Source: Nitrospirota bacterium (GTDB taxonomy: Bacteria > Nitrospirota > UBA9217). Taken from it: a DNA stretch of 64,000 bases. Of the stretch, positions 10,047-56,972 are shown piece after piece. Made by a program: the position numbers and the translations under genes. Under the pieces are notes generated by a model. The model was not told where the DNA came from. It ran no database searches and saw nothing but the letters and a program-made list of their open reading frames with translations. Where the stretch lies: assembly GCA_963737155.1 (NCBI GenBank), contig CAVTRN010000001.1:1472001-1536000 (forward strand), written 5' to 3'. How positions within the stretch are numbered: the stretch's first letter is position 1; each line of letters begins with the position of its first letter.

Positions 10047-10122
10047 GCCTATGAATATTTGCGTAACCGGCGCGGAGCATGCGCCAGCGTGCGAAAAGTC
10101 CAGGTTGACGCGGTGGTTAGGC
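10047..10122 (-). other. Integron attC site (degenerate R' core)
   Basis: Minus strand: GCCTAAC-cacc-GCGTCAACCTGG...CCGGTTACGC-aaatatt-CATAGGC, an imperfect palindrome directly after a minus-strand gene. Confidence 0.7.
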
Positions 10123-36656: not shown

Positions 36657-37157
36657 GCTTTTGCTTAAAAATATTCAGATGATTGCGACGACATTTGCAG
36701 AAATTAGAATGATAAAAATACAGCATGGAATTACAGGTAATTGCTGCTAGATGCATTGTAAGCGGATTATCTGCTCAATGATGCTGCAGCTCCAATGTAG
36801 CTCCAATGTTAATTTGTAATTTAACAGAAAGAATTTAACAAGAGGCAACCGGCACCAGTGAAATTGCTACACAGAAGTGCATCATTCCCCCAATCACGCG
36901 TTTAAAATTGAGTAGTGTAGCATAATCTTTCTACAGTGATTTTCGTTCTGATCGAAGTAAAGAGCCTGATATTCTCGAACGCTGGGGACAATTCACTTTC
37001 GTGGCGAACCATATTAAATTCATTTAGCTCAATTTACCTTAAACAGAACCTTTTTGCACGCATTCCGAGCGATCTTTGCGTGATACTGATTTCTTGGCAT
37101 TATGCAATTTAGGTGACGGGATATTCCCAATCTTACAAGCTTCTTTGGTGGAGGTTT

Positions 37158-40100
37158 ATGATGGATCAGCAGAGTAGAAATCATCGCAGATTACCCGTAC
37201 TGGAACATTGCTCATTAGTGAAGAGACTCTATCTTATGATCTCAGGATTGATCGTCGCAATGAGCTTATGGACAATGATTGCAATGATATTGCCTTCTGA
37301 ATCTTATGCAATCTGTTTGCAAGGATCTGGAGCGACTGCAAATCAAATAGTTTTTTGTGATACTCAAACGGAAGCTTTGGCTGCAGCAAGTGGCTATTGC
37401 AGTAACTCGGGCTCAAATTGTTGCACTTTTGCAGTTGGAGAAACTTATTCTAACTCTTATTGTGGTCCCTTTGGGTGCGGCACCGCAGGGGGGGAGGTAG
37501 ACATTAACAATTGCGGCGTAACTGCTTATCCCATTATCTTCGGGAACTGCGACGAAGGCGCGACTCAGTCCTGCACAGAAAACTATCTTAACGGGGTACA
37601 GTGCAACGGCACACAGACCTGCTTGCCTAACGCCCAGTATGGCTATTGCGCACTCTTTGATCCGTCGTGCTTACCATGTTCTGATGGTCAATCACAGAAC
37701 TGTGCTTATACCTGTCCTTCGGGTATACAGATCACCGGCACACAGGCCTGCGAGAACCAACTGTTCGGCTCCTGTTATGCTGATCCATTAATATGTCAGC
37801 AAGCAGTATGCAATGATGGCCAGACATTGCCTTGCAACACTTACGACATTGCGGGGAATCAGTGCTACGGTGCTCAGACATGCAGTGGCGGCCAGTGGGG
37901 ATACTGCCAGCCTGGCTCAACGTGCGCAACATGCCTCGGCAGCAGTAGTCAGTTATGCATTGCAACAGATATATTGGGGAATCAATGCAACGGTTCTGAG
38001 ACATGCAGTGGCAGCCAGTGGGGACCCTGCCTGCCAACCGGCCCGTCGTGCGCAGTATGCTCACCCAATCAGACCCAGACATGTTCATGTCCCATTGGCG
38101 GGGGAACTCAAACATGCTCTTCTTCTGGACAATGGAGTGCATGCTCATGCATAGTTGCATGCCAAACTGGTGATTGCGGTAATACCAGTAATGGTCCCCA
38201 GAGTAATACCACATGCATCAATTCATCTGCAAATCTAAAAAGTGGCAATCTCACTCATAATCAAGATGTAATTACAGCGCCCAAGAGCTTGCCCTTTTCA
38301 TTAACCTACAATAGCAATGACATTACTGTAGGACCGTTAGGACGTGGCTGGACCGATACGTATAATGTGTTCATTTCCGCTGCAACGAATACTTCTGGAA
38401 GTATCTCGTCACTTATTTTGACAGAAAATAGCGGTAACAAAATAATGTTCTCTCCTTCCAGCAGCCTATATTCCCCCAGTGCAGGCAGCGGGGACACATC
38501 AACCATAGTTGTCAATGCCGACGGGACTTATACCCGCACTCTAAAAGACGGGACCCTGCAAACATTCAATACTTCCGGCATCCTCAATACAATCAGTGAC
38601 CGGAATAACAACACCACAACGTTGTCCTACAGCGGCGGAAATCTGGTTACTATAACCGATTCTACAGGAAGATCGCTCAGTATTGCAGCAGCAAGCGGCC
38701 AGATAGCATCGATAACTGATCCTTCTGGCCAGACCTACAAATTTTCTTATAATGGCAATTTACTGATGGCAGTCTCTGATCCTTCGGGCGATATATGGAA
38801 CTACACCTATGATGCTAACGGCAGAATGCTCACCAAGACAGATCCGGCAGGTTTCCAGTCGATCTACGCCTATGATGTCAACGGAAATCTTATAAGCACA
38901 ACAGACCCCAATGGAATGGTAAAAACCATGACGTATAACCAAGCCTTGAATGAGGCACAGTTTGTGGAAATAGACGGCGGGGTTTGGTATCAGTTTTATG
39001 ATCCTAATCTAAACCTGCCGACACAGACAATGGCGGTGGATCCGAACGATAACGAATATATAACCAACTACACTTATGACAGCAACGGCAACATGCTCAC
39101 TAAAACGGACCCGGATGGGGACGTTACTACTTACACTTATGACGCAAAGAGCAATGTAACTTCGATAATAAATGCTCTTGGCCAAAAAACAATCTATACG
39201 TACAATAACTTCTCCGAGGTCACGTCAATGATAGACCCCTTGGGGAACAACACCACGTACACTTACGACGCCAATGGGAATCTTTTATCCACAACTGATC
39301 CATTGGGAGTTGTCACCACATATCAGTATGACACCAAAGGCAATGAAACAAGAGCTACCAATGCCTTAAATCATACCACCAAACTAACTTACGATAAATA
39401 CAATAACATCGCATCAGTCACCGATCCGGCGGGCGACAAATCCACGTTCACGTATACTATAAACGGCAAAATGACTAGCCTGACAGATGCCAACGGCAAT
39501 ACAACAACATTAACGTATAATAACCTAAATCAACTGATTCAGGTCGTTGATTCGGAAGGAAACACGACACTATATGCTTATGACAAGGATGGCAACCGGA
39601 CAATGCGGGCCGATGCAAACGGCAATGCAACGTATTTCGCGTATAACTTTAAAAGACAGCCCACGATGGGGAAGAATGCGTTAGGTGGCATAACGAGCCT
39701 CAACTACACAGGAACTGGTTGCGAATTCTGTGGTGGGAGTAGGTACCAACTTGCTGCCCTTATAGACGCGAATGGGAATACCACATCCTACTCGTATGAT
39801 ATACTCGGGAGGCTCATCAACCAAACCGATTCTCTCGGAAATGGAATAATGTATTCCTATGATCCCGCGGGCAACCTGACCACCGTCAATAAAGCCGATG
39901 GAGCCACTATACACTATGCCTATGACGCAACTGGCAGACTGTTGACAAAATCCTATCCTGACGGCTCGACAACTTCCTTTACTTATGATGCCAAGGGTAA
40001 CATCCTCACAGCCACAAATAACAATATTTCCTATACCTTCACCTACGATGCAGACGGAAGAGTGGCGAGCGTAGCAGACCATTTTAATGATCTGGTGAAT

Positions 40101-41564
40101 TATGCGTATGATGCTGTTGGAAACAAAACGCAAACGCAATTAATTTCTCCTTCTGGCGATTCAACTGATAGTTATATTTATGATTCCACAAACAGACTTA
40201 GTAAAATTAAAGATGAGGCTAAGACTTTCACTTTTGCATATGATAAGACTGGAAAACGCACGAACCTCACTCTTCCGAACGGAGCGTCTGCAAGTTACAT
40301 ATATGACTTGTCCGGCAATTTAACAAGCTTGATAAATACTTCTTCAACTGGTACTATTATCGCAAGCTCTGCCTATACCTTGGACAAGGTTGGAAACAGG
40401 CTGACCTCGTCCGGAGTGAATGGTGAGAATTCGTACAGCTATGACGCTGTATACGATCTACTATCTGCGCAGCCTGGGGGCAACGCCCAGTATGGTCCTG
40501 AAGAATACACATATGATCTGATGGGCAACCGTCTTACGGGGCCGAAGTCGAATCAAACCTATACCTTTAACCAGGACAACCAGCTTGTCACTGAAAACAA
40601 GCAACAGTTCCAGTACGACAATAACGGGAACCTTATAAGCTATGTAACCAGATCGACCACATCCAGTTATTCTTATGACTTTGAAAACAGGCTGACGCAA
40701 GTGATCACGGCCAGTACCGACACCGTAACGACGACAGCATACGCCTACGACCCCTTTGGCCGAAGGATTCAAAAAAGCGTAACAACAGCAGCAGCAGGCA
40801 ACACAATTGCCACAAGCACATACTACATCTACGACGGACAATCTGTTTTACTTGAAAACACTGACACCGCCTCAGGCGGAGAAGTTACAATCCGTTATAT
40901 CCAAGGTCCCAACATAGACGAGCACCTGGCAATGGTCCGAGTCAATGACAATACTTACAACTACTATCATGCAGACGGTCTAGGCTCGATAGTCGCGATA
41001 ACGGATAAAAATCAGCAAATAGATGAAACATACACCTATTCAGCATTTGGTGTGGTCACGAGTGTGGGTAATGGAATAAATAACCCTTATAGCTTTACTG
41101 GCAGGGAATGGGATTCAGAAGCAAGCCTGTACTATTATCGGTCTAGGTATTATAACCGGAAGATAGGGAGGTTTATCAGCAAAGACCCAATAGGGTTTAT
41201 AGGTGGTTTGAATCTATACCGATACGTGGGAAATAATCCTATTAACTTTAGAGACCCATATGGACTTAATCAAGAACTCTATGGGTGGATTAGTAATTTC
41301 ACTCAGGAGGCTTTTACAAGCACCATCGAAAACCTATTACCTGAGTCTCTTGAAGCGCCCCTTCAAGCGGCAGGCTATGCGTTAGGCGTGCTTGATCCGT
41401 TCCCTCGGGAACTTAATGCGGAAGAAGATGCTATGGTCTTAATAACACAGAGTCAAGAGTTTGGTGCAGCTGTTGATCAGTTGGCTATAGATACTGTGAA
41501 TACAAGTGATCAACTTGAACAATTAATTAATGATGAAAATGAGAGAATAGGTAACTGTCATTAA
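37158..41564 (+). CDS. Sec-secreted RHS/YD-repeat protein with Cys-rich repetitive N-terminus (RHS1)
   Basis: GGAGG RBS, signal peptide (SYA|), repeated G-x-QTC-xGxQWGxC modules, DUF6531-like LTYNS/LGRGW, YD repeats, HADGLGS...NNPINFRDPYGL cleavage motif, about 95-aa CT. Confidence 0.93.
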   Translation: MMDQQSRNHRRLPVLEHCSLVKRLYLMISGLIVAMSLWTMIAMILPSESYAICLQGSGATANQIVFCDTQTEALAAASGYCSNSGSNCCTFAVGETYSNSYCGPFGCGTAGGEVDINNCGVTAYPIIFGNCDEGATQSCTENYLNGVQCNGTQTCLPNAQYGYCALFDPSCLPCSDGQSQNCAYTCPSGIQITGTQACENQLFGSCYADPLICQQAVCNDGQTLPCNTYDIAGNQCYGAQTCSGGQWGYCQPGSTCATCLGSSSQLCIATDILGNQCNGSETCSGSQWGPCLPTGPSCAVCSPNQTQTCSCPIGGGTQTCSSSGQWSACSCIVACQTGDCGNTSNGPQSNTTCINSSANLKSGNLTHNQDVITAPKSLPFSLTYNSNDITVGPLGRGWTDTYNVFISAATNTSGSISSLILTENSGNKIMFSPSSSLYSPSAGSGDTSTIVVNADGTYTRTLKDGTLQTFNTSGILNTISDRNNNTTTLSYSGGNLVTITDSTGRSLSIAAASGQIASITDPSGQTYKFSYNGNLLMAVSDPSGDIWNYTYDANGRMLTKTDPAGFQSIYAYDVNGNLISTTDPNGMVKTMTYNQALNEAQFVEIDGGVWYQFYDPNLNLPTQTMAVDPNDNEYITNYTYDSNGNMLTKTDPDGDVTTYTYDAKSNVTSIINALGQKTIYTYNNFSEVTSMIDPLGNNTTYTYDANGNLLSTTDPLGVVTTYQYDTKGNETRATNALNHTTKLTYDKYNNIASVTDPAGDKSTFTYTINGKMTSLTDANGNTTTLTYNNLNQLIQVVDSEGNTTLYAYDKDGNRTMRADANGNATYFAYNFKRQPTMGKNALGGITSLNYTGTGCEFCGGSRYQLAALIDANGNTTSYSYDILGRLINQTDSLGNGIMYSYDPAGNLTTVNKADGATIHYAYDATGRLLTKSYPDGSTTSFTYDAKGNILTATNNNISYTFTYDADGRVASVADHFNDLVNYAYDAVGNKTQTQLISPSGDSTDSYIYDSTNRLSKIKDEAKTFTFAYDKTGKRTNLTLPNGASASYIYDLSGNLTSLINTSSTGTIIASSAYTLDKVGNRLTSSGVNGENSYSYDAVYDLLSAQPGGNAQYGPEEYTYDLMGNRLTGPKSNQTYTFNQDNQLVTENKQQFQYDNNGNLISYVTRSTTSSYSYDFENRLTQVITASTDTVTTTAYAYDPFGRRIQKSVTTAAAGNTIATSTYYIYDGQSVLLENTDTASGGEVTIRYIQGPNIDEHLAMVRVNDNTYNYYHADGLGSIVAITDKNQQIDETYTYSAFGVVTSVGNGINNPYSFTGREWDSEASLYYYRSRYYNRKIGRFISKDPIGFIGGLNLYRYVGNNPINFRDPYGLNQELYGWISNFTQEAFTSTIENLLPESLEAPLQAAGYALGVLDPFPRELNAEEDAMVLITQSQEFGAAVDQLAIDTVNTSDQLEQLINDENERIGNCH

Positions 41565-42103: not shown

Positions 42104-42664
42104 ATGAAAAACAGTATACTGATCATAATATCGGTAATAGTACCCTTATTTCTGTCCTCACATGTTTATGCAATTTACCAGTGGGTCGATGAAAAAGGCC
42201 AAGTTCATATTAGTGATTATCCGAAGCCGACATATGAGCAAAATAATACGGAGAAAACCTTGAAGGGTGAAAGGTCTCAGTTGACAACGACTGTCAGTAA
42301 TGAAAATGCTATACAACGCATGGATTTAGGATCAACCCAACCCTCAACGGGAATAATCAGCCGGCCTCAATTCGATCAGACAGGTATACAACGATCTCTA
42401 GCTAGTTTGGGCGAGCAAATATTATCATTTGTATTCCTTGGATTCTGTCTGTTCGTTGCTTGGATATTTGCCTTGATCGATATAATCCGTAGTAAATTTT
42501 ATGACAATACTAATAAGATTCTATGGTTTTTCTTTGTCTTTTTGCTTGCACCAATTGGAGTTATACTATATTTTCTCATAGGCAGACAACAAAAAATAGA
42601 AGTAGCGTCAAATAGGGATACCGAAATGCCCCGCAGAAGACCGCGAAATTTAGATTTGGAATAG
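42104..42664 (+). CDS. DUF4124 plus PLDc_N membrane protein
   Basis: IYQWVDEKGQVHISDYP. WIFALIDII...KILW...PIGVILYFLIGR. Confidence 0.8.
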   Translation: MKNSILIIISVIVPLFLSSHVYAIYQWVDEKGQVHISDYPKPTYEQNNTEKTLKGERSQLTTTVSNENAIQRMDLGSTQPSTGIISRPQFDQTGIQRSLASLGEQILSFVFLGFCLFVAWIFALIDIIRSKFYDNTNKILWFFFVFLLAPIGVILYFLIGRQQKIEVASNRDTEMPRRRPRNLDLE

Positions 42665-43286: not shown

Positions 43287-44065
43287 TATGTCCTGAGCTC
43301 GGCAGCGGGCGAATTTATTTGAATCATCCATAAACATGTGGCCGCTGCTGTTTGTAATCATACTATCGGCATTTTCAGAGGAAACGGTGCCGAACATCAA
43401 ATAACTTTGAGGGGAAGCGCAGCGCCTTTCATTTGATTCAGGAAATTAACTCCATTATAGGCAGTAAAGCCCTATCGCCTCTGCAAAGATTTAATAGCTT
43501 CATTACTTGCTTTTTGTGCTAAACTGTGGGTCACTTCATTGAGCTTGACAAATATGTCAAGGATAACTGATTATTCGGTATTTTATGACGATCACAGCGA
43601 TAGCCAGCTTCGATTATTTTGACACCGAAGCTTTTTTTAGCGAGGTACAACTTCGCCAGTCAAACTATTTGTCTTATATGATGACTGTAGTAGAACTGTA
43701 GTCTCCCCATCAATCCTGTCAATTTTTGATATTCCGATGTAGCGCACCCGGTACACTGGACATAAGATAACAGTAAAGCTGCGATCTTCAATCGATATTC
43801 ATTGGCAGTACATTCTCTCAAAATGCTTTTTAAATAATCAATCGTTATCTTTGTCAGCCCTCGCGACACTGCTGTTGCGCTCGGGATATTTCCTATTTCA
43901 ATCACTATCTGTATATAGAAGCTCTCTTGTCAGCGTAAAACAGAAGAGATGCCATCTAAATAATTATATATGTCCGCCCCATCCATATCCTGATCTAATC
44001 GGCATCTTGTTGATTCCCGTCAAGACGTAATCTGCCTTCTTCAATAAAAATATGCAAACAAAGAT

Positions 44066-44131
44066 CTGGGGATTATTTAGTATAAAACTAGGGTTTCCCC
44101 GGTTGACATAAATGGGAAACGATGAAAAACT
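44066..44131 (+). promoter_or_regulatory. Regulon box H with promoter upstream of the PPC/FlgD-RHS2 cluster
   Basis: CTGGGGATTATTTAGTATAAAACTAGGGTTTCCCCGG-TTGACA. Confidence 0.7.
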
Positions 44132-44470
44132 CTAATATAAAAAACGAATTACTAAGTAGCCGGAAGTCTATCTGTTAATTTATGCATAAGCTGATTTAGA
44201 GTTATTCGTAATAACAGCTTATCGCTAACACAATGAAGAGGACCCTCTCCGACCTGACAATTATGCCATACCAACAGACAATATCTACCTACAATGAGAG
44301 GCCAGAAGGGGAGATCTGCCAATTTAAATGCAATCTTACTTAATGTGATACAGTTCGGACGACAAGGGACGTTAACAGCACTGCTGGCTCTATGTCTTAA
44401 CGAGACTAAGTCTCGATTTTCTATAGTTACATCCGTGATGATAAAGCCCTTATCCCTCGAGGTGTCAAAA

Positions 44471-47065
44471 ATGGCGATTAAGATTAAACCGTATCTTTCA
44501 TTATCCTGTTTTCTTTTTATCTTAATATCACTAATCCCTCTTACCACCCATGCGGCCACACCGTTGTCCTGCGGCCAGGTGGTGTCCACTACGACAATTT
44601 CATCTGGGGAGATTGACAATTACGCCTTTTCGGGGACTGCGGGAGACACGGTGCGGATAGTGGCGGTACCTGTTTCCGGGAACCTCACCTACGGGGCAGT
44701 CGCACTCTATGACCCGTCTGGTAATTTTATAACCTGGTCGAACTCTGGGCCCATTCAGACAGCGCTAACCGTGAGTGGAGTTTACACGCTCGAGGTGTAC
44801 ACAGAATTTTACAACGGGATCGGCACATACCAGGTAAGATGGGACAATCTCAATAGCCCGTGTGAGGGTGAAGTCACCCTGCTATGCGGGCAAACCGCAG
44901 TCGGTACGACATCCTCATATGTGCAGGAAGACTACTACACCTTCACGGCGGCTGGGGGAGACACGGTGCGGGTGGGGGCGGCACCTGTTTCCGGGAGTTC
45001 TTCATTCTATCCAGGCGTGGTGCTTTATGACCCCTCGGGTACGGTGATAGCTACCACGACCGGTGAGCCCATTCAAACAGCGCTAACTACAACCGGAAAT
45101 TATACGCTCAGGGTGTACGGTGACAATTACAACGGGGACGGCACCTACCAGATAAGATGGAACAACCTCAAGAATCCTTGCGGGGGAAACATCCTGCCAT
45201 GCGGGCTGGCTACGTCCGGTACGATAACCTCATATGTGCAGGAAGACTACTACACCTTCACGGCGTCTGCGGGAGACATAGAGCGGATAGTGGCGGCACC
45301 TATTCCCGGGAGTTCTTCATTCTATCCGGGCGTGGTGCTCTATGACCCCTCGGGTGCGGTGTTAGCCGGGTCGACCAACGGGCCCATTCAAACAGCACTA
45401 ACTTCAACCGGAAATTATACGCTCATAGTGTACGCTGACTATTACGAAGGAACCGGAAGCTACAATCTTTCAGAGGAGAAATTAAATAATCCCTGTAATT
45501 CTGTAGCTATGAATTGTGGACAGAGCCTGTCGGGATCGATAGTTAATCCACTCGATGCGTTTTTTTATAGTTTTACAGCCAATGCGGGTGATGCATTAGT
45601 GTTCACAATGATGACGACCTCCGGGAACCTCACTCCCGGACTTCAGCTTTTCGACTCCTCTGGGAATATAATAGCTGAAAATTATAACCTCACAACGGGC
45701 GGGACTGTAACGCTGAATTCTACTGTCTCCCAGGCAGGCACTTATTTCATCGCCGCCTCAGATTATAATTATAATGCGGTTGGCAATTATACGATCAATT
45801 TCCAGAAGAACGGCAATTCCTGCCCCGAGGTGCAAGTGCTGTCTCCTAATGGAGGGGACACTCTATATGCGGGATCTCCCTATCTCATCACATGGACCAC
45901 CTCGGCTAGTGCTGGCCTGGCATCCGAGGGCATTAGTTTATCGGTAGACAGTGGGGCCACGTATTCGACAATTGCTCAGGGTTTGCCAGGCAACACCACT
46001 TCATGGCAGTGGACGCCAAGTAGCACAACCTCAAACGGACGCATCCGGATATCCGTGACCGACAATGCGGGACTCACCGATTTTGACAATAGTGCTGCCG
46101 ATTTTACGATACTTTCCATGGTGACGGCTCCGGCAAGCACGGCCAACGTAACGCTGTCCAATGTCAGCGCGAGCAGCAACTCAATCAACACGATGGCTTC
46201 GCAGTCATCCAGCATATTCTTTACCCTCAATGAGCCAGCCACGGCAACGCTCATGATAATACCTCAAATGCAGGGTCCGACGGGGACCCCGATTTATCAG
46301 ACATCTCAGACCTGCGCTGCGGCCGGGTCGTATGCCTTCACTTGGAATGGGACGGACAACACGGGCAAGGTCGTCCCTGACGAGGCGTACCTTTATGTCA
46401 TAGTGGCATCAGACGGCACAACGTCCACTAGTTATTCCCCGCTTGCCTCGACAGGCACAGGCACGGGAACTTGCTCGCAGTCGTCGAATTGCGATCCTTT
46501 GAGCAATAACCCCTTGACGGTCACCTACTCGGTGGCACTGTCCTCCCGGGTGACCATCAGTATCACCTGGGGGGCGCAGAACTTCACAATTCTGAATGCC
46601 TACCCAGTATTGCCGGGGACCTATAGCTATGTTTGGGATGTCAGGAACCCGAGCGGCGAACCACTCGATTTCGGCGCACTAGCCTACTGCTCAGCGTCTC
46701 TTCTCCCTGGGAACATTATAATAACGTCCGGAGACACGCCCGTGGTAAGTGCGCTCAAAACCGATCCTTTTGCGATGAATATGTCCTATGGCCAGTTTAC
46801 GAGGATAGAGTACACGCTCTCGCGAGACTCGAATGTCACCATACAGCTTGTCTCGCCGTCCGGAGTGGCCATGACTCTCGTCAATAACCAGCTTCAAACG
46901 GCGGGTCATCAAGAGTTCGACTGGCATGGTATGGATCCGACGGATACGACTGGAAAGGAAGCTTTGGTATCCGAGGAGGGTAATTATATGGTCACGATTC
47001 AGGCCGTGAACCCGATTACCGGGACAAGTTCTACCACAAGAGGAAATTTGGCGATCGGAGATTGA
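44471..47065 (+). CDS. Secreted beta-sandwich protein: four PPC-like repeats, an Ig-like domain and FlgD-Ig-like C-terminal domains
   Basis: GAGGTG RBS, signal peptide. Repeats D-YY-TF-TA-xxGD-x-V...LYDPSG...G-x-Y-TL. SPNGG..ITW. FTWNGTDNTGKVVPDEAYLY and FDWHGMD...EEGNY. Confidence 0.82.
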   Translation: MAIKIKPYLSLSCFLFILISLIPLTTHAATPLSCGQVVSTTTISSGEIDNYAFSGTAGDTVRIVAVPVSGNLTYGAVALYDPSGNFITWSNSGPIQTALTVSGVYTLEVYTEFYNGIGTYQVRWDNLNSPCEGEVTLLCGQTAVGTTSSYVQEDYYTFTAAGGDTVRVGAAPVSGSSSFYPGVVLYDPSGTVIATTTGEPIQTALTTTGNYTLRVYGDNYNGDGTYQIRWNNLKNPCGGNILPCGLATSGTITSYVQEDYYTFTASAGDIERIVAAPIPGSSSFYPGVVLYDPSGAVLAGSTNGPIQTALTSTGNYTLIVYADYYEGTGSYNLSEEKLNNPCNSVAMNCGQSLSGSIVNPLDAFFYSFTANAGDALVFTMMTTSGNLTPGLQLFDSSGNIIAENYNLTTGGTVTLNSTVSQAGTYFIAASDYNYNAVGNYTINFQKNGNSCPEVQVLSPNGGDTLYAGSPYLITWTTSASAGLASEGISLSVDSGATYSTIAQGLPGNTTSWQWTPSSTTSNGRIRISVTDNAGLTDFDNSAADFTILSMVTAPASTANVTLSNVSASSNSINTMASQSSSIFFTLNEPATATLMIIPQMQGPTGTPIYQTSQTCAAAGSYAFTWNGTDNTGKVVPDEAYLYVIVASDGTTSTSYSPLASTGTGTGTCSQSSNCDPLSNNPLTVTYSVALSSRVTISITWGAQNFTILNAYPVLPGTYSYVWDVRNPSGEPLDFGALAYCSASLLPGNIIITSGDTPVVSALKTDPFAMNMSYGQFTRIEYTLSRDSNVTIQLVSPSGVAMTLVNNQLQTAGHQEFDWHGMDPTDTTGKEALVSEEGNYMVTIQAVNPITGTSSTTRGNLAIGD

Positions 47066-47323
47066 GGGTCACTAAATATGACCGTCTTTGTTCCAATTAA
47101 ACTTCATTAATCAAGAATTCTAATTTCACATCAAGTTATTGATTACATAAAAAAAGGCAAAATGTTTTTCACCAAAGGTAAGGATGGCAAATAAATTCAG
47201 GCGCTATCTTTTTACCCTTTTGCGTATTTTAGGAGATTTGCAAGAGACTCCCAGGCTTAAAGTCAATACATGCCTTGTAGACTTTGAGGCAGTGTTTTGG
47301 AAAGCGCACGAGCGGAGGTTCAT

Positions 47324-47791
47324 ATGATGCACAGGATAAAGGATATGCTTTGTTTGTTCATGACTGAATTTCCCCACAAAAAAAATGTACCTTTTATGCT
47401 CTTGATGTTGCTCTACATGTATAGTCCGCTTAAATTAGCATACGCAAATTGCAATTATATGTTTGTAAGCGAAGACTTATGTTTAATTGATGTGGGTTGC
47501 ACTACCAAAAAGGAAGCTAAGGACGTAGCGATACATTTCGGCAAGCCTCCTATTCCTAGTACAATTTATCCTAATTGTTTTAACCATCTTAATACGCCCC
47601 TACCTTGCGGAACGTATACAATTTGTTGGAGTTGCCCCGGGTACTCTTGGTGCCCTACCCCTGACGTACCAGTTGTACGGCAGTGCAGCGCTGGAGATCT
47701 CTGTTGTCTAAAACCCGATGACCCCTGCTGCAAAAAAGCGGGCGGTACAGGGAGCAGCAGCAATGTACCTAACGCTGTCGTCGGTAATTAA
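47324..47791 (+). CDS. Secreted Cys-rich protein, array copy 1
   Basis: GGAGG RBS. Conserved leader (MMHRIKDML...AYA|), variable Cys-rich core, conserved CCLKPDDPCC tail. Confidence 0.85.
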   Translation: MMHRIKDMLCLFMTEFPHKKNVPFMLLMLLYMYSPLKLAYANCNYMFVSEDLCLIDVGCTTKKEAKDVAIHFGKPPIPSTIYPNCFNHLNTPLPCGTYTICWSCPGYSWCPTPDVPVVRQCSAGDLCCLKPDDPCCKKAGGTGSSSNVPNAVVGN

Positions 47792-47845
47792 TAAGGAGAG
47801 TGAATATGGCAAAAGGGCGATTGAGGTTGCAAGTATAGGGTTCGC

Positions 47846-48337
47846 ATGATGCACAGGATAAAAAATATGCTTAGCTTATTCATGACTGAATTTCTCCACA
47901 AAAAAAACGTCCTTTACCTGCTCTTGATGTCGCTTTGCATGTTTACTCCGCTTAAATCAGCTTATGCAGTTTGCGATGGTGGAAGTGAATGCACATGGCA
48001 ACTTTGCACAACCGAAGCGGAAGCTCGAGATTGGCTTACTGGTTGTCCTCCCCTAGCCCCAATACCTTGGCTCCCGGGATCGAATTGCTACTGGATAACT
48101 TGTGGTTCGAATCCGTCAATGCCGCATCCCTGCCTGCTTATGGATGGGGTGAATGTTCAAGGTTCGATTTGTTGGACTTGCCCCGGGGCCGGCTGGTGCC
48201 CTCCCCCTGCAGTAAAAGTCGTGCCGCAGTGCAGCGCTGGTGATTACTGTTGTCTAAAGCCCGATGACCCCTGCTGCCAAGTTGCGGGCAGTACAGGGAG
48301 TGGCAGCAATGTAACTAACGCTGTCAGCGGTCATTAA
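47846..48337 (+). CDS. Secreted Cys-rich protein, array copy 2
   Basis: Same leader and tail as copy 1, different core. Confidence 0.85.
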   Translation: MMHRIKNMLSLFMTEFLHKKNVLYLLLMSLCMFTPLKSAYAVCDGGSECTWQLCTTEAEARDWLTGCPPLAPIPWLPGSNCYWITCGSNPSMPHPCLLMDGVNVQGSICWTCPGAGWCPPPAVKVVPQCSAGDYCCLKPDDPCCQVAGSTGSGSNVTNAVSGH

Positions 48338-48585
48338 TGACCAGAGTGAATATGGCAACGGGGCGATTGATGTTGCAAGTCTCGAAACGATAGTCTTTAA
48401 ATTTTCTCTGCGTAAATTGATCATGCGAATTCTATAAGGTGATAAATAAATACAGGCGCTAGCTTTTTACCCTTTTTGAGTATTTTAGGAGATTTGAAGG
48501 ATACTCCCAGGTTTAAAGTCAGTCAATACACGCCTTGTGGACTAGAGATAGTGTTTCTGAAAGTGTACAAGCGGAGGTTCACACG

Positions 48586-49056
48586 ATGCACAGGATAAAA
48601 GACATGCTTAGTTTGTTCATGTCTGAAATTCTCCAGAAAAAAAATGTCCTTTTGCTGATCTTGCTGATGGTTTACATGTATTATCTGCTTAAATCCGCCT
48701 ATGCAGATTGCGCTGGTACGTATGGATTTCAATCATGCGAAACCGAGGCAGAAGGTCTTAATTGGAATTCAGTTTATGCTTGTGGTAATGGCGGCTTATA
48801 CCATATCCCATGGCTCCCGGAGTCGAATTGTTATTGGATGACTTGTACCCCGCTGACACCCATAGGCGATGCCGGATGCCTACCTTTCAGTGGGGTGTTT
48901 GTTTGTGGCACGATATGTTGGAATTACAACGGCCCTCTCAATATGAAGTGCAGCTCTGGAGATCCCTGTTGTCTAAAGCCCGATGACCCCTGCTGCCAAG
49001 TTGCGGGCAGTACAGGGAGCGGCAGCAATGTACCTAACGCTGTCATCGGTCATTAA
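48586..49056 (+). CDS. Secreted Cys-rich protein, array copy 3
   Basis: GGAGG RBS. Same leader and tail, different core. Confidence 0.85.
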   Translation: MHRIKDMLSLFMSEILQKKNVLLLILLMVYMYYLLKSAYADCAGTYGFQSCETEAEGLNWNSVYACGNGGLYHIPWLPESNCYWMTCTPLTPIGDAGCLPFSGVFVCGTICWNYNGPLNMKCSSGDPCCLKPDDPCCQVAGSTGSGSNVPNAVIGH

Positions 49057-49197
49057 TGACGAGAGTGAATATTGCAACAGGGCGATTGATGTTGCAAGTC
49101 TCGAAGCGATAGCCTTTAAATACTTTCTGCGTAAATAACCATGCGAATATTATCCAGATATCGGGGTATTAATCTTTTAAGTTGCCAGGAGGTACTA

Positions 49198-52100
49198 ATG
49201 TGCCGATCAATGTATATGTTGTTGCTCCTCATGCTTGTAATCCCGCTTTCATCTCCCGCATACGCAGAGCATCTGGCTCCTGCCGATCAGTTTTGCGCAC
49301 CGGTGACCGGGAGCGGCAGCGATAGCAAACTCTTTTATGGCGGCAAACCCGTAAGTCTGCTCTCGGGCGTTGAGTATTTTAGGCGGACCGACCTTACCAT
49401 CGGCAGCCTTTTCCCCATCACCGTCACACGCCAGTACGACAGCAGTTCCGCCTACGATAGTCCGCTCGGCTACGGGTGGGCGCTGGACTATGACAAACGC
49501 CTTTATACCTACCCGGACGGCTCCATCGTACTACGCAAGGACTGCGGCGGGAAATCTCGCTTTACCTGGAACGTGTCGGGATACAGCAGCTCTGCGGGAG
49601 ACCCGAGCACCCTCGTTCAAAATGCTGACGGCACCTATACTTACACCGACAAATATGGACAAAGCGAAAATTATGATGCTCAGGGGCGGCTTACGAGTAA
49701 GGTGGATACGAAGGGCAATTCGCTCGTGTTTACCTATGAAAGCAGCATATTGAGCTCGCTCTGGGGGCTGTCGCCCTGGAACATCAATCAGTCAACCCCC
49801 CTTATTGTTGCATATGATTACCAATTGGTCAAAATCGAAGAGGATGCTGCCACAGGCTCACCCACCGGTGTTTCTGTTACGTTCTCCTATGACACCTCAA
49901 CGAACAGGCTCATTGGCGTCATGGACAGCGCTGGCCGGTCAATCACCTACAGCCACGACAACATAGGAAATCTGATCGGGGTAAGTAACCCCTCGGGGAA
50001 TATATCCTATGGGTATAACGATTCAACCAACAATCACCTCCTTACGGACATTGACGAGGGCCAGGGTGCGTACACCAATACATATGACACTTATGGCAGG
50101 GTCATCTGGCAGACCCACGGCACGGGTGCAATAGAATTTGCGTATACCATCCCGTCTTCAGCGACTACGATCACCACTTACATTGCAGACAACTCAGGTA
50201 ATCTCCTGAACGCCCAGGGCCGGACAGTAAATTTCGACAGTAATGGAGCCCTGATCATGGCTACTGATACCTTCGGGAATGTCACAACCTACACGCGTGA
50301 CGCTAACTCGTGGATCACGCAGGAGGGATACTGGGAGAATACCGGCACGGTGTCAACACCGAATCTCGTGCTCACGACGGCAATGAGTTACACTTACGAC
50401 ACTAAAGGCAACATGCTCAGCAAAACCGAGGCATTGGGGACAGCACAACAAAAGACCACCACCTACACCTATCATCCCACATTCAGCTTCGTGACGTCCG
50501 AAACGGTAACAAGTGTGGTTGATCCGAGCCAAAACAAGGTCATCACGAAAAATTATGACAATACAAACGGGAATCTTTTGTCAGTCGCGGAAACCGGTCT
50601 CTTAGGAAACGGGACCCCGTATTCCTATACCACGACCTACGGGTATGACGGCTTGGGCCACGTGACCAGCATCAGCGGCCCACGGACCGATGTTGATGAG
50701 GTGACAACATATACTTACGATCCCGTAACTTATTATCGTACATCCATGACCCAGCCGATAGTCGGGACGACCACCTATTCTAACTTTGACCCCCTCGGCA
50801 ATCCCCAGACCGTCACTGACCCGAATGGGAACAGCACGACCTACACCTACGATGCCACGGGCAGGGTGCTGACCGTAAAAGCTCCTGGTGATTCGAACCC
50901 GACGCAGTTATTTTATGTCTCCGGCGGTTGTTCCTCATGCGGCGGGGGGACGGCACTCAATATTGATCATATAACGCTACCCTCAGGCAATACGATCTGG
51001 TATACTTATGACGCCATGGGAAACCTTGCCACGATCAAGGACAGCCTGAACAACAGCATCAACTATACCTATGACTCCGCAGGGAACAAGCTAACAGAAC
51101 AGATCAACGATGCATCCGGAGCCCTCCAGAAGAGTTTAAGTTATCAGTATGATGCGCTTAACCGGCTTTACCAGACCGTCAATCCCGACACCACGTACAC
51201 GCAGTATGGCTACGATAATCTCAACAACCGCACATCGGCCCAGAACCCGAAATTGGCAATTACGAATTATACATACGATGCCCTGAGCAGACTCACTTCG
51301 GTGGTTCAGCCCGGCACGATCACAACTGCTTACGGCTATAATGCGAACAACAACCTCACGTCTGTTACGGACGCCAACAGCAATACGACGACGTACAAGT
51401 ACGACGATAAAGGAAGGGTCTATCAAGTCATATCGCCCGATACGGGAACGACAACATACTCGTATGATCCGGCAGGAAACCTTATCGCCAAGACGGATGC
51501 GAAAGGAGTCACCATCTCCTATACCTATGATGCTCTGAACCGCCTTACCAATATCAACTTCCCGAGTGACCCAAACATCGTGTATACGTATGATACGTGC
51601 CCGAACGGCAAGGGCAGACTGTGCTCCATGACCGATGCCAGCGGTTCGACAAATTATGTCTACACGCCGAAAGGGCAGGTCAGCACACAAACAAACGTCA
51701 TCAACAGCATACAGTACGTTACCCAGTACACTTACGATCAGGACGGAAACGTTGCTACAATGACCTATCCGTCGGGCCGCGTGATTACGTACGACTACAC
51801 GAACGATCGAGCTGTAAGCGTCCTGAACAACTCTGCGAATCTTGCCACAAACATCACTTACAAACCCTTTGGCGGTATGAGCGCGATAACCTATGGAAAT
51901 GGCCTGACCGGTTCGGTTTCTTACGACAACCAATATCGCATCACGGCTATCACCGATGGCGCTGTCATGAATCTGAGTTACCCAAATTATGACGCGGACG
52001 GCAATATCAATGCCATCACCAACGTGCTCGACGCCACAAAGAACAAGTCTTACGGCTACGATGCATTAGACCGGCTGAACAGCGCGACGGGCTCCTGGGG

Positions 52101-53109
52101 CAGCGTTAGCTGGACTTATGATGGCGCCGGCAATCGGCTCACGGAAGGATCAAATAGCTATACTTACGCTCCGAACACCAATAAATTAACGGGCGCCAAC
52201 GGAATATCCTATGGATATGATAACGACGGAAACACTACCTCGCAGGGCGCGATTCAGTACATCTACAATCAGAATCAGAGGCTCATTCAGGCAAATAATG
52301 GCGGAACGACAGCGTATTACACCTATAACGGAAACGGCCAGCGAGTCATGAAGGACGTAAATGGAACCACGACGATATTCATTTACAGCCTGACCGGCCA
52401 GATCATTGCCGAATCGAACAGCGCTGGAAATATCACTGTGGAATATGTATACTTGAACAGGCAACCGCTGGCGCAGATCGTAAACGGCAATACGTACTAT
52501 TACCACCCCGATCATCTCGGCACCCCGCACAAGATGACGGACGCAACCGGCACCGTCGTTTGGTCTGCATACTATAAACCCTTCGGTGCAGCGAGCGTCA
52601 CTGTATCTACGATCACGAACAATCTGCGATTACCGGGGCAGTACTTCGATGCGGAGACGGGGCTGAATTATAACTACTATAGAGACTATAGTTCAGTCAT
52701 CGGAAGATATCTCGAGTCAGACCCTTTGATGTTGCCATTTCTTCATAACCGTAGCGTCCGTTTTGTCCTCCCATATTTAACAACAACTCCAGGCCATCTT
52801 CACGATTATCTCTACGTGGAAAATAATCCCATACATTGGGTTGACTCAAAAGGATTATTACAGAGTTCAGGATCAGGGCCATCCGGTTATCCTGGTAATG
52901 AGGGAGCGGCGTGTAATCTTAACAATGCTTCTAGTCTCATCTATGGCCACTTTAATATGGGTGCCGAATATGCGTATACTCCCGTACAATGTTGTGAAGA
53001 AGAAAACTGCAATCCAACTTGCCCGTCAGATAAGGGTCCGTGGCTAACTAAACCAAATTCCGATAAATGTGTATGCGTTAAATGGAAGACTATCATGAAG
53101 GAATATTGA
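49198..53109 (+). CDS. Sec-secreted RHS/YD-repeat protein (RHS2) with a Cys-rich C-terminal cargo
   Basis: AGGAGG RBS, signal peptide (AYA|), GKPVSLLSG/RQYDS/LGYGW (DUF6531-like), YD repeats, HPDHLGTP, PGQYFD, NNPIHWVDSKGL. Confidence 0.94.
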   Translation: MCRSMYMLLLLMLVIPLSSPAYAEHLAPADQFCAPVTGSGSDSKLFYGGKPVSLLSGVEYFRRTDLTIGSLFPITVTRQYDSSSAYDSPLGYGWALDYDKRLYTYPDGSIVLRKDCGGKSRFTWNVSGYSSSAGDPSTLVQNADGTYTYTDKYGQSENYDAQGRLTSKVDTKGNSLVFTYESSILSSLWGLSPWNINQSTPLIVAYDYQLVKIEEDAATGSPTGVSVTFSYDTSTNRLIGVMDSAGRSITYSHDNIGNLIGVSNPSGNISYGYNDSTNNHLLTDIDEGQGAYTNTYDTYGRVIWQTHGTGAIEFAYTIPSSATTITTYIADNSGNLLNAQGRTVNFDSNGALIMATDTFGNVTTYTRDANSWITQEGYWENTGTVSTPNLVLTTAMSYTYDTKGNMLSKTEALGTAQQKTTTYTYHPTFSFVTSETVTSVVDPSQNKVITKNYDNTNGNLLSVAETGLLGNGTPYSYTTTYGYDGLGHVTSISGPRTDVDEVTTYTYDPVTYYRTSMTQPIVGTTTYSNFDPLGNPQTVTDPNGNSTTYTYDATGRVLTVKAPGDSNPTQLFYVSGGCSSCGGGTALNIDHITLPSGNTIWYTYDAMGNLATIKDSLNNSINYTYDSAGNKLTEQINDASGALQKSLSYQYDALNRLYQTVNPDTTYTQYGYDNLNNRTSAQNPKLAITNYTYDALSRLTSVVQPGTITTAYGYNANNNLTSVTDANSNTTTYKYDDKGRVYQVISPDTGTTTYSYDPAGNLIAKTDAKGVTISYTYDALNRLTNINFPSDPNIVYTYDTCPNGKGRLCSMTDASGSTNYVYTPKGQVSTQTNVINSIQYVTQYTYDQDGNVATMTYPSGRVITYDYTNDRAVSVLNNSANLATNITYKPFGGMSAITYGNGLTGSVSYDNQYRITAITDGAVMNLSYPNYDADGNINAITNVLDATKNKSYGYDALDRLNSATGSWGSVSWTYDGAGNRLTEGSNSYTYAPNTNKLTGANGISYGYDNDGNTTSQGAIQYIYNQNQRLIQANNGGTTAYYTYNGNGQRVMKDVNGTTTIFIYSLTGQIIAESNSAGNITVEYVYLNRQPLAQIVNGNTYYYHPDHLGTPHKMTDATGTVVWSAYYKPFGAASVTVSTITNNLRLPGQYFDAETGLNYNYYRDYSSVIGRYLESDPLMLPFLHNRSVRFVLPYLTTTPGHLHDYLYVENNPIHWVDSKGLLQSSGSGPSGYPGNEGAACNLNNASSLIYGHFNMGAEYAYTPVQCCEEENCNPTCPSDKGPWLTKPNSDKCVCVKWKTIMKEY

Positions 53110-53121
53110 TAAAGGGATGAT

Positions 53122-53586
53122 ATGACTACTTTTATTCGTAAAAGCAAATTGCTATCTTTGTTTTATGCGTCTTCTATGGTGTTGCTCTTCCATTATTGTT
53201 ATGGCTTAATAAAACATTCAGTTTGGAGTAAAGCTCTCGGTTTTGTAAGCATGGATATTTCGACCCCAAAATGGTTGATATTTGCCTTGGTACTATTTAC
53301 AAATTTTATAGCGGATATAACCTCATCACTAATAGCTGCGATAATTCCAGGTTTTCTTCTTTTTTATGTTCTGAAAAAGAGCGCCACCTATTATAGCCTT
53401 CCAGCAGTTTTGGTTTTTATAGCCTTAAGTCCTCGGCTGCGGAAATTATGGAGTGCGCCGAAGCTAGAAACAAAAATTAGCCTATTAATAGGGCCATTCT
53501 TGGCAGCTTTCGTGTATCTATCTGTCGTTTGGCTTTTTCAAAAGTATCTCATCAAACGCATGGGAAACAACATCAACCAAGCGTAA
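53122..53586 (+). CDS. 4-TM membrane protein, candidate immunity for the RHS2 CT
   Basis: Directly follows the CT, hydrophobic. Confidence 0.7.
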   Translation: MTTFIRKSKLLSLFYASSMVLLFHYCYGLIKHSVWSKALGFVSMDISTPKWLIFALVLFTNFIADITSSLIAAIIPGFLLFYVLKKSATYYSLPAVLVFIALSPRLRKLWSAPKLETKISLLIGPFLAAFVYLSVVWLFQKYLIKRMGNNINQA

Positions 53587-53589
53587 CCT

Positions 53590-53900
53590 ATCACCCCGCC
53601 GCTACGTTCTTCTGTACCAGCGCATCGAGATAATGCAGGAGAACCATCTGGTCTCCTTTCGGAAGGCCATCTCATTTTTAACTGCCGCCTCGATGACCAC
53701 GTGTTTCGGACGTTGCTTGACTTACTCGGCAATCAATGATTTAATTAGCCCTCAAGTGCACCTATGATCCTTGGAAAAACTGTCGAAAAACGAGTTGCGT
53801 CATAAGATTTATTGCTCTCGGAAGGCCGTATGGATAAAGGGTTTTCCCCTGATGAGCCGAAGCCGCTGGACGGGATGATCCACACCGATCATCTCGGCAC
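53590..53900. repeat. About 300-bp inter-cassette repeat, copy 1 (others: 54778-54861 plus 56253-56470, and 57798-58125)
   Basis: Shared ACCAGCGCATCGAGATAATGCA block and GACGGG-x-TGATCCAC-x-CCGATCATCT junction. Confidence 0.8.
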
Positions 53901-54456
53901 TCCGCAGATAATGACGAATAGTTCCGGGGCAGTTGTGTGGTCTGCATACTATAAAGCGTTCGGTGCAGCGACCGTCACCGTATCGACGATCACGAATAAT
54001 CTGCGATTCCCTGGGCAGTACTACGATGCAGAGACAGGCTTGAACTATAATTACTTCAGGGACTATAATCCAGTGATCGGGAATTACATAGAACCTGATC
54101 GTGTCAATTTAAAATCTTTACAGCTTCCCCTGCCGCTTTTTAAAGCGAAAATTCACTTTCCAAATATAAATGAAACTAATTTGAAAAAAATACTAACCAA
54201 CTATTCTCTCTATCATCCACAAACACAGAATCCATATCCCTATGTAGACGATAATCCAAACAACCGGACAGATCCTGATGGTGAATTTTGGCCGGAAATT
54301 ATAATCGGGATTATCATAAGTGGACTAATCGCAGAAATGATATATAGTGGATTACATCCAGAAGAAGAACCCCCACAACATATCGATCCAGAACAGCCTG
54401 ATCTTAATCAACCAACCCCTACGCGGCGGCCTTTAGAACCATGTGAAAGGGAATAA
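53875..54456 (+). CDS. Orphan RHS core-tip/CT module 1
   Basis: HTDHLGTP...PGQYYD...DPDGE, then a TM helix and a Pro-rich tail. Confidence 0.85.
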   Translation: MIHTDHLGTPQIMTNSSGAVVWSAYYKAFGAATVTVSTITNNLRFPGQYYDAETGLNYNYFRDYNPVIGNYIEPDRVNLKSLQLPLPLFKAKIHFPNINETNLKKILTNYSLYHPQTQNPYPYVDDNPNNRTDPDGEFWPEIIIGIIISGLIAEMIYSGLHPEEEPPQHIDPEQPDLNQPTPTRRPLEPCERE

Positions 54457-54457
54457 A

Positions 54458-56244: not shown

Positions 56245-56444
56245 TATTATTTTAACCACCGTTACAAAGCCGAGTGCAGATGCTGCTTGACTTGTGTTGT
56301 GATCAATGGCTTAATATCAATTGCACTTATGCTTTTACAATAAAGTGTCGAAAAACGTATGGTGTCGTAAGTGTATGTTGTGCTGATAACTCCGCATGGA
56401 TACAGGTCCTTTCTCTTATCGTCTGTGATTGCTTGGACGGGCTG

Positions 56445-56972
56445 ATCCACCCCGATCATCTCGGTACGCCGCAAATGATAACGAACAGTTCCGGAGCAGT
56501 TGTGTGGTTTGCCTACTATAAAGCGTTCGGTGCAGCAACCTTAACCGTATCAACGATCACGAACAACCTGAGATTCCCAGGGCAGTACTTCGATGCTGAG
56601 ACGGGGCTACATCAGAACTGGAATCGTGATTACAATTTTTCAAATGGTCGATACCTTGAAGCGGATCCTTTTTTGCTTCCACTTTTTTATCAAGGCAAAA
56701 TATTATTCGTCCCACCATATATCACAAAAAATCCAAACCTCATACCCGTTTATCTTTATGGGGTAAATAATCCTACGAAATATATCGATTCAAATGGTTA
56801 TAAAGCAGCACAATGTAATCCATGTCCTTATGGAAATCAGCCATGGGTTGCATGCATCATGCTGTGTGATACAGCGTGTGCTGCAGCTTTTATTGTTGAG
56901 GCCCCCCCTATAGCGGTTATTTGTATTATCACATGCCATGCAGCTTGCGAGGGCCAAAAGTGCGAGAAATAA
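56445..56972 (+). CDS. Orphan RHS core-tip/CT module 2 (Cys-rich hydrophobic hairpin CT), no clear start codon
   Basis: HPDHLGTP...PGQYFD...NNPTKYIDSNGY, then CIMLCDTAC...ICIITCHAAC. Confidence 0.8.
   Translation: MHPDHLGTPQMITNSSGAVVWFAYYKAFGAATLTVSTITNNLRFPGQYFDAETGLHQNWNRDYNFSNGRYLEADPFLLPLFYQGKILFVPPYITKNPNLIPVYLYGVNNPTKYIDSNGYKAAQCNPCPYGNQPWVACIMLCDTACAAAFIVEAPPIAVICIITCHAACEGQKCEK

Follow-up and report, generated by a model that had tools for sequence, protein, structure and literature searches.

Three cysteine-rich proteins as probable detached N-terminal heads of a Sec-exported RHS toxin in a Nitrospirota bacterium

RHS toxins vary at their C-terminal tips, and their N-terminus sets the delivery route. 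In the Rhs effectors of type VI secretion systems (T6SS), delivery is decided by an N-terminal PAAR module, present either in frame or as a separate small gene beside rhs. In the Tc (ABC) toxins, adjacent genes encode a very large protein, TcA, and a TcB-TcC RHS cocoon that encapsulates the toxin tip. To our knowledge, how the Sec-exported RHS proteins of Gram-negative bacteria find and enter their targets is poorly understood. Here, we analyse a 64,000-nucleotide stretch of DNA from a Nitrospirota bacterium (GTDB lineage Bacteria; Nitrospirota; UBA9217; GenBank assembly GCA_963737155.1, contig CAVTRN010000001.1, positions 1,472,001 to 1,536,000), hereafter the window, in which a tandem array of three genes for small cysteine-rich proteins (heads 1 to 3, H1 to H3) lies upstream of RHS2, a gene encoding a headless RHS toxin. 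Our analysis indicates that the three genes probably encode the detached N-terminal head domain of a Sec-exported RHS toxin lineage, that the head would join the RHS particle and supply its variable part, and that the array probably arose by tandem duplication. An initial annotation of the window had already taken them for detached, exchangeable N-terminal modules; the part that stood is that they are detached RHS N-termini, with fused counterparts and strict linkage to RHS genes.

The present locus shares with the Tc toxins a group of three adjacent genes in which a very large protein accompanies an RHS cocoon with a toxin tip. However, the large proteins found here contain only PPC, beta-helix, fn3, FlgD_ig and P_proprotein domains and none of the TcA type, the cocoon is a single chain, and the middle gene encodes a cysteine-rich protein of 130-460 aa rather than TcB; judged by its domains, the locus is not a Tc toxin. 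Heads are found both fused to RHS proteins and separate next to them, and in this respect they work like the PAAR module, the T6SS N-terminal determinant in passages of the main polymorphic-toxin survey (PMC3482391), without being members of it. Indeed, no scan of the heads brought up a PAAR domain or another PAAR family, both heads and RHS proteins carry Sec signal peptides, are disulfide-rich and would act outside the cytoplasm, and as many as four hypervariable copies of the head can stand in one array. The orphan C-terminal rhs cassettes described in the same survey (Zhang et al. 2012, PMC3482391) are likewise extra variable modules beside a full-length RHS gene, and the window has two of them downstream of RHS2, but the heads correspond to the opposite end of the protein, each is a full gene that has its own start, signal peptide and stop, and they have just an 18-nt linker motif in common with RHS2.

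The bacterial teneurin-like proteins (BiTLP; Raoelijaona et al. 2026, PMC13018210) are described as Sec-exported YD/RHS shells whose N-terminal adhesion domains vary; they enclose a small toxin, and an immunity gene lies downstream. The export route and the variable N-terminal domains recur here, as possibly does an N-to-C disulfide, deduced in our case from cysteine parity and position. In contrast, no FN-plug, NHL or TTR domain is recognizable by sequence (TEN_YD-shell, PF25023, reaches 14.7 bits against a cut-off of 50), and in most loci the N-terminal part is a separate gene product. A loose functional parallel, compared by description, is provided by Bd0108-Bd0109 of Bdellovibrio, which sections of PMC4267844 describe as a small Sec-exported protein that binds the RHS-repeat protein encoded beside it (Kd 45 uM); Bd0108 is intrinsically disordered and 101 aa long, Bd0109 lacks protease and toxin parts, and the pair regulates pili. 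Full-text literature searches of main texts retrieved no description of detached cysteine-rich RHS heads, and the terms 'cysteine-rich' and 'disulfide' are absent from the first 300,000 characters of the polymorphic-toxin survey (PMC3482391). The split cysteine-rich heads are a variation on known polymorphic RHS toxin systems.

The open reading frames (ORFs) and their alignment bear out the earlier description of three paralogues with a common leader and tail around divergent cores, the other two heads being 60% and 49% identical to H1 (coordinates in Table 1). The leader of 40-41 aa is nearly invariant, M(M)HRIKDMLSLFM.E...KKNV...LK.AYA, and consists of the M(M)HRIKDMLSLFM.E segment, a KKN charge cluster, a hydrophobic core and LK.AYA, followed by a cysteine at +2. 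The tail is also nearly invariant, C-S-x-G-D-x-CCLKPDDPCC..AG.TGS.SNV.NAV.G(H/N), and the cores in between are cysteine-rich and divergent. A GGAGG stands 5-6 nt ahead of the ATG in H1 and H3. The genome contains exactly three heads, all inside the window, and they had no matches in Pfam or NCBIfam. Among 13 further heads or fused head regions searched against Pfam, the sole head-specific match was the short MopE metal-binding motif (PF11617), detected in two long heads at 27.5-27.6 bits (cut-off 27), and two fused N-termini also matched DUF6531 or RHS_repeat downstream of the head. An ESM Atlas search with the heads gave no usable match. The AlphaFold2 model of mature head 3 (13-row alignment) had a mean pLDDT of 60 and a pTM of 0.48, with only residues ~6-72 moderately confident (strand, helix, strands) and an unstructured DPCC tail; since its best Z against 48,161 PDB representatives was 3.7, no fold can be assigned.

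The evidence that carries this interpretation begins with the existence of the same head in fused and split form. Two RHS2-type loci of genome G015 have the head fused in frame and lack a separate head gene, and the fused protein consists of a long leader, a head with 19-21 cysteines, a Gly-rich linker and DUF6531 at residues 156-224 (Pfam). Residues 1-131 of a stand-alone head of 144 aa from G054 align with the N-terminus of the 1440-aa G015 RHS, and this head is 36% identical to the fused N-termini of G015 (BLASTP E 1e-16 and 6e-14). When a profile of 13 window-type heads was compared with a profile of the fused type using hhalign, the leader and first module matched with a probability of 98% (E 1.7e-13). 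The head of RHS1, the second RHS toxin encoded in the window, is also linked to stand-alone heads: a G003 head with the window-type MxRIKD leader aligns over 168 aa with it (E 5e-8), and both contain the unit C..G.TQ.C....GTQTC..GQWG.C. A more distant RHS in G001 has a fused head with CDTEAEA, GTQTC..GRWGPC, eight STDPCCG units and FANVASGNL, followed by DUF6531 at residues 248-316, at the start of which it reaches FANVASGNLSHNQD. Following the classical gene-fusion (Rosetta-stone) argument, a head that is found both fused and split suggests that the split products associate physically.

The second line of evidence comes from the upstream DNA of RHS2 orthologues, which we retrieved with the first 300 RHS2 residues after the N-terminal stretch. 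Orthologues of this region were detected in 15 of the 64 genomes of the window's family, at 42-63% identity (55-63% for intact copies). All 15 headless RHS2-type loci (the window, G050, two in G034, two in G003, G042, G054, G062, three in G014, G020, G021 and G015:C5) are preceded directly upstream by one or more ORFs of 131-462 aa that encode a signal peptide and contain 8-14% cysteine, and the number of head genes per locus ranges from one to four. Arrays occur in the window (three heads), G054 (four) and G003 (three, at a contig end). A sixteenth locus, G014:C6, is decayed, and so is its head. Across 17 RHS2-type loci, the head was either fused or separate and missing in none. By sequence, then, the head in this bacterial family is either the in-frame N-terminus of an RHS protein or one to four separate genes located between a large-protein gene and a headless RHS gene.

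Searches that started from the heads themselves gave the same association. Most upstream heads are too divergent for the head profile to detect, and this profile matched only 4 of the 64 family genomes and 4 of 401 in a sample of the phylum, all four in that family, with no match in the other 14 genomes of the same genus. Outside G000, its six places of occurrence were all at RHS loci: five consisted of ORFs upstream of an RHS gene or a contig end, usually downstream of a very large secreted protein, and the sixth was the fused N-terminus of an RHS. An exhaustive HMMER search of 1.84 billion representatives with a four-sequence head profile (E<=0.001) returned 12 proteins, one of them a repetitive 1402-aa artefact. 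The 11 real relatives are 99-195 aa long and have the same leader, a CTTEAEA-like motif, DPCC motifs and a GTGSG tail. A profile search with the 4-row head alignment found nothing in genome contigs or metagenome contigs, as did a search of genome contigs with the RHS2 N-terminus.

Several features of the wider head family were observed alongside. Runs of a DPCC repeat of 6-7 residues, eight STDPCCG units in G001 (L042 207-1403) for example, precede the tail in heads of G001, G003, G054, G042 and G014; these runs match no family and look like a disulfide-laddered stalk. Long heads of 271-462 aa in G062 (L020 6389-7777), G020 (L023 6675-7664) and G014 (L025 461-1276) repeat C..G....CY.GP.G..G.G.C..G...C..C.W modules, and two of them contain the MopE-type CDGxDNDC (PF11617). 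A more distant and longer RHS in G021:C14 (L030 7115-8404, a 1558-aa frame) has the mature start ...GYCTTEQEVDKYV, which recalls the CTTEAEA of the heads; its remaining N-terminus is not cysteine-rich (2.8% cysteine).

Cysteine counts add a regularity across the locus. We counted head cysteines after the signal-peptide core, with signal-peptide ends set by a simple hydrophobicity rule, and tip cysteines after the DPxGL-type cleavage motif. The number was odd in 30 of 31 stand-alone heads (range 7 to 41) and in 15 of 15 toxin tips (range 1 to 15), which include the tips of both window RHS proteins and of both orphan cassettes. In 14 of the 15 tips, the last cysteine lies <=13 residues from the C-terminus, and homologous tips of unequal cysteine count differ by two. 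The mature bodies of intact headless RHS proteins were even in 10 of 10 cases. Nine of these bodies contain six cysteines, the first ~12 residues from the mature start, another in RK(D/E)CGGK within DUF6531, and the rest in two local pairs. Exactly the first two of these six cysteines are lacking in the G054 RHS body. Neighbouring large proteins, used as an internal control, were odd in 4 of 9. In RHS1, the sum is 41 + 2 + 1, with the last head cysteine three residues before DUF6531 and the single tip cysteine at the penultimate residue. A lipoprotein nature of the heads, which could also explain an odd cysteine, was considered and rejected: the residue before the first cysteine is D, E, N, T or V in most heads, and this cysteine stands at +2 after an AxA site.

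The simplest reading of these counts is that one cysteine of every head and of every tip may be reserved for a bond beyond its own domain; in each locus, the only odd partner of the one is the other. The pattern suggests that one interchain disulfide might join the head and the toxin assembly. A precedent is given in the structural passages of PMC13018210, where the cryo-EM structure of a Bacillus teneurin-like protein shows a disulfide, C719-C2216, between a cysteine near the C-terminus of the toxin and a pre-plug cysteine; the toxin cysteine lies 21 residues from the C-terminus and its partner four to five residues before the plug cleavage site, and the authors propose that this bond holds the toxin and the N-terminal domains together after release. 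We tentatively extend this to the present locus: it is possible, if less than even in probability, that the RHS shell serves as an assembly chamber for a two-chain, disulfide-linked toxin of the A-B type, a head-S-S-toxin conjugate in which the exchangeable head picks the target and reduction frees the toxin. The spare cysteine of the head would then bond to the spare cysteine that the tip has near its C-terminus, either directly or via the two-cysteine N-terminal segment of the RHS protein. If so, three heads combined with one resident and two orphan tips would allow up to nine combinations, giving a toxin that is variable at both ends.

Taken together, the assignment of the three genes as detached heads is based on split and fused homology, strict adjacency, complementary presence, signal peptides, cysteine richness and mosaic divergence. 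The initial annotation had made its proposal depend on the existence of fused homologues and on the family not occurring independently of RHS genes; fused forms were found in G015, RHS1 and G001, and every head of readable context adjoins an RHS gene, a count that leaves out eight metagenomic relatives (P0004-P0013, excluding P0009). We envisage that export and disulfide folding would come first, and that the head would then join the RHS particle just before the DUF6531 plug, as in the fused proteins, docking via its conserved tail and its one spare cysteine. The head would be the variable, outward-facing adhesion or targeting part, a function deduced from position and variability alone, and the shell would carry the toxin tip.

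Some observations weigh against this interpretation or limit it. The annotation had proposed a search for homologues in which CCLKPDDPCC continues in frame into DUF6531/RHS, and no such homologue was found: no protein carries the window's exact tail on into RHS, all 11 real relatives from the exhaustive HMMER search are short, and word-index searches for longer relatives, which are weak evidence, came back empty. Direct comparison of window-type heads with RHS1 by hhalign was weak (48%), so the link between the window heads and the RHS1 head relies on the G003 intermediate. The tail past GTGSG is not conserved across the head family and is merely Gly/Ser/Asn-rich in the relatives, so SNVxNAVxG appears to be particular to the window's genome; its likeness to the first DUF6531 strand may therefore reflect local history rather than a docking element. 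The head fold is uncertain given the pLDDT of 60, and the headless locus G014:C1 has a head without a large protein upstream. As for parity, head P0008 has 18 cysteines, the fused 1440-aa G015 RHS sums to an unbalanced 21+7+3 = 31, the simple rule leaves signal-peptide ends approximate and ORF 9722-10093 of G054 ambiguous, and the counts are not independent trials because the sequences are related. When head 3 was modelled as a complex with residues 1-595 of mature RHS2, without controls, the score was 0.00, which is evidence neither way.

The DNA of the array points to duplication followed by exchange. A repeat search confirmed that the flanking non-coding DNA is repeated, as initially noticed (families D1, D3, D5, D6 and D7). 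The upstream element is ~95 nt long, its two copies (47189-47283 and 48444-48543; D3, D5, D6) being 86-94% identical, and head 2 lacks an upstream element of its own; a 139-nt version is present only in these two copies in the 4.84-Mb genome and has no significant RNA fold (z -0.81). On the 3' side, D1 crosses the stop codons of the heads and reaches 47834, 48380 and 49099, and D7 matches 48415-48435 with 49133-49153. The spacer after H2 ends in a vestige (48421-48435) of 49141-49153, the bases preceding RHS2, and for this reason the duplicated unit would be the head with its spacer and the DNA just upstream of RHS2. Among the heads, Ks rises from 0.07-0.17 in the tail through 0.31-0.59 in the leader to values between 0.76 and saturation in the core, and a leader Ka/Ks of 0.2-0.6 indicates purifying selection. 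Tails look genome-specific, as the G003 heads all end alike and unlike those of the window. A Ks mosaic of this kind indicates that gene conversion acted on the ends or that foreign cores were brought in between conserved ends; what the DNA retains of the head exchange proposed earlier is this trace of recombination or gene conversion among heads. In the proposed history, the array would derive from tandem duplication of the unit, recombination would keep leader, tail and spacers alike, and cores would diverge. Because these processes left three heads with constant ends and diverging cores, one RHS shell could be paired with three alternative heads.

Head tails and RHS2 also share the 18-nt motif coding for TGSGS(N/D), with four sites in the window: the three head tails, which end TGSGSN..., and 49306-49323 in RHS2, where the linker ...APVTGSGSD... 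lies fifteen residues ahead of DUF6531. As the pattern was derived from its four sites, its zero expected count is not an independent test. The head tails of G062 and G020 (DNTGKSTT and DNSGKGTAGKN) resemble the N-terminal stretch of their own RHS (DGSGKS and DHSGKN), much as TGSGSN resembles TGSGSD in the window. That head 3 is joined to RHS2 by read-through or frameshifting was rejected, given the TAATGA double stop and the many stops present in every frame of the 143-nt spacer.

The gene upstream of the heads raises another explanation, according to which the heads would be adaptors by which the RHS particle is attached to the large surface protein, at its conserved C-terminal module, forming an anchored, contact-dependent weapon. 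The large proteins have this module of ~300 aa in common but differ toward the N-terminus (PPC, beta-helix, fn3); the window protein and its G050 counterpart, for example, are 55% identical over the C-terminal 289 aa (E 1e-98) and unrelated at the N-terminus. The module occurs only beside RHS2-type genes, in 14 of the 401 genomes, all in the window's family, with every strong match no more than ~1-2.4 kb from an RHS2-type match, and the order large protein, head, RHS is found in 13 of the 15 headless loci. However, a conserved module should bind a conserved partner, and the head cores are hypervariable. Moreover, G014:C1 dispenses with the large protein, RHS1 with its fused head has an IS256-type transposase upstream instead, and the cysteine counts of the large proteins follow no parity rule. 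We therefore consider an adaptor role rather unlikely, although it would account for the gene order.

A role as DNA rather than protein appears improbable. In that case the heads would be a silent or semi-silent reservoir whose cores recombine, via leader and tail, into RHS genes or into an expressed head slot. The roughly tenfold lower Ks in tail and spacers than in the core, the repeated flanks, the two orphan C-terminal cassettes and insertion sequence (IS) elements at the locus, and a truncated 85-aa head fragment beside an intact head in G003 are all compatible with it. Nevertheless, every head, unlike the orphan C-terminal cassettes, forms a full gene that includes a start, a signal peptide and a stop (and a Shine-Dalgarno site in H1 and H3), and homology between heads and RHS2 ends at 18 nt, so RHS2 lacks the two arms that replacement of a head would need. 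Neither inverted repeats at the array (repeat search) nor variant joints in metagenome contigs from two sequencing runs, at very low cover, were detected.

It is also quite improbable that the heads act on their own as secreted cysteine-rich proteins, bacteriocin-like peptides or adhesins for instance, and merely happen to share a variable island with RHS genes. Each does have a signal peptide of its own and none a known domain, the island is mobile and rich in defence genes, and the eight metagenomic relatives are outside the adjacency count. Yet three genomes have homologous heads in frame at the front of an RHS protein, a separate head is present in 15 of 15 headless loci and absent in 2 of 2 fused loci, and no head was found away from an RHS locus. 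Finally, that the heads are functionless, decaying 5' ends of former full-length RHS genes is highly improbable: the tails end where DUF6531 would begin and a vestige of RHS2-upstream DNA follows head 2, but the heads have kept intact reading frames and, across genera, a conserved stop position, purifying selection acts on the leader (Ka/Ks 0.2-0.6), cysteine parity is held while counts run from 7 to 41, and heads are universal upstream of headless RHS genes.

Returning to the toxins with which the detached heads would assemble, the two DUF6531 genes of the genome, RHS1 and RHS2, are both inside the window. PF05593 RHS/YD repeats were detected at E 4e-102 in RHS1 and 1.3e-69 in RHS2, TIGR01643 matches as well, and the RHS-associated core TIGR03696 matches each, with a DPxGL-type cleavage motif followed by a variable C-terminal tip. 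By its domain content, the RHS1/RHS2 locus belongs to the class of RHS polymorphic toxins. The likelier start of RHS2 is the ATG at 49199, behind AGGAGG, which gives a 23-aa signal peptide and then 24 residues, with one cysteine (DQFC) and the TGSGSD linker, before DUF6531 (residues 68-140 of the ORF counted from 49141; Pfam), the RHS shell, the RHS core and an 83-aa toxin tip with 7 cysteines. It was thus correctly seen at the outset that RHS2 begins almost directly with DUF6531 and that RHS1 carries a fused cysteine-rich head, which spans ~300 aa with 41 cysteines ahead of DUF6531 at residues 374-425.

Tips differ even among RHS2 orthologues that are 55-63% identical at the N-terminus. One G015 tip, L014 (G015:C8) 12494-12943 on the minus strand, matches secreted phospholipase A2 (PF00068) at 35.5 bits, above the cut-off of 32.1, and one in G034, L035 (G034:C16) 1662-2111, also on the minus strand, reaches 29.9 bits, under that cut-off; both phospholipase A2-like tips show the signature YGNWCGPGG...CC.xHD.C and 9 cysteines each. 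The window's own tips had no family match. The cysteine richness of the tips and the Sec signals on all components point to action in oxidising surroundings outside the cytoplasm. Each tip is followed by a small hydrophobic ORF (41698-41886, 53122-53586 and 54443-54766; no family match), and the product of 53122-53586 is, from its position alone, a candidate immunity protein. Orphan cassette 1 contains the RHS core motif and is followed by the 107-aa ORF at 54443-54766; an ISL3-family transposase gene (54873-56138, minus strand) separates the two orphan cassettes.

Table 1. Features of the RHS toxin loci in the window (positions counted from the first nucleotide of the window)
Feature	Position	Strand	Remarks
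RHS1, full-length RHS with fused cysteine-rich head	37113..41564	+	Pfam, NCBIfam
Large secreted surface protein	44471..47065	+	Pfam: PPC repeats, FlgD-Ig-like and P-domain-like C-terminal modules
Upstream element, copy 1 (5' UTR or promoter region of head 1)	47189..47323	+	Repeat families D3, D5, D6
Head 1 (H1)	47324..47791	+	155 aa, 41-aa leader, mature part with 13 Cys
Head 2 (H2)	47846..48337	+	163 aa, mature part with 15 Cys; starts 55 nt past H1
Post-stop spacer repeat after head 2	48338..48443	+	D1 and D7
Upstream element, copy 2, ahead of head 3	48444..48585	+	Repeat families D3, D5, D6
Head 3 (H3)	48586..49056	+	156 aa, mature part with 13 Cys
RHS2, headless RHS toxin	49199..53109	+	Pfam, NCBIfam; longest ORF from 49141
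Hydrophobic ORF	53122..53586	+	154 aa, 13 nt past RHS2; without Pfam family
Orphan RHS C-terminal cassette 1	53812..54456	+	PF03527; 56-aa tip with 1 Cys
Orphan RHS C-terminal cassette 2	56274..56972	+	PF03527; 56-aa tip with 9 Cys

The window as a whole is a mobile, defence-rich island with Tn7-like genes, restriction systems and transposases of the IS256, IS4 and ISL3 types. Tn7-like transposition genes (Mu-transposase C-terminus, TniB, TniQ) occupy positions 1-2800 and are followed by genes for an HNH endonuclease, an Mrr-type restriction enzyme, a RelA/SpoT-domain protein and a type I methylase/specificity fusion. Upstream of RHS1, a transposase gene (34453-35721, Mutator/IS256 family) stands where other loci have the large surface-protein gene, and the RHS1 locus may have been severed from its upstream partner. 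Between the RHS1 and RHS2 loci, 42104-42664 encodes a 186-aa protein with DUF4124 and a PLDc_N membrane domain. A TonB-dependent receptor is encoded in the window, and the host is Gram-negative in build; no secretion machinery was found among the genes of the 64 kb. An Rfam scan of the whole window gave zero matches, a promoter and terminator scan gave a signal no higher than shuffles, and PF18582, used as a test for the anammox lineage, had no match in the genome. Contigs from three DNA runs of one study covered window positions 44000-54000 only with scattered pieces of 150-330 nt, which in two runs, labelled soil metagenome, are identical to the window (0 differing letters). This study may be where the assembly comes from.

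Considering that RHS toxins are known for their variable C-terminal tips, the present data add a recurrent three-gene design, in which a large surface protein is accompanied by one or more split cysteine-rich heads and a headless RHS protein. The natural fused and split versions of one head predict which proteins assemble and where, and the odd/odd/even cysteine rule points to a specific covalent link between them. If the heads are indeed interchangeable targeting parts, this bacterial family would diversify its toxins at both ends, and its RHS loci would constitute a natural system for re-aiming an encapsulated payload.

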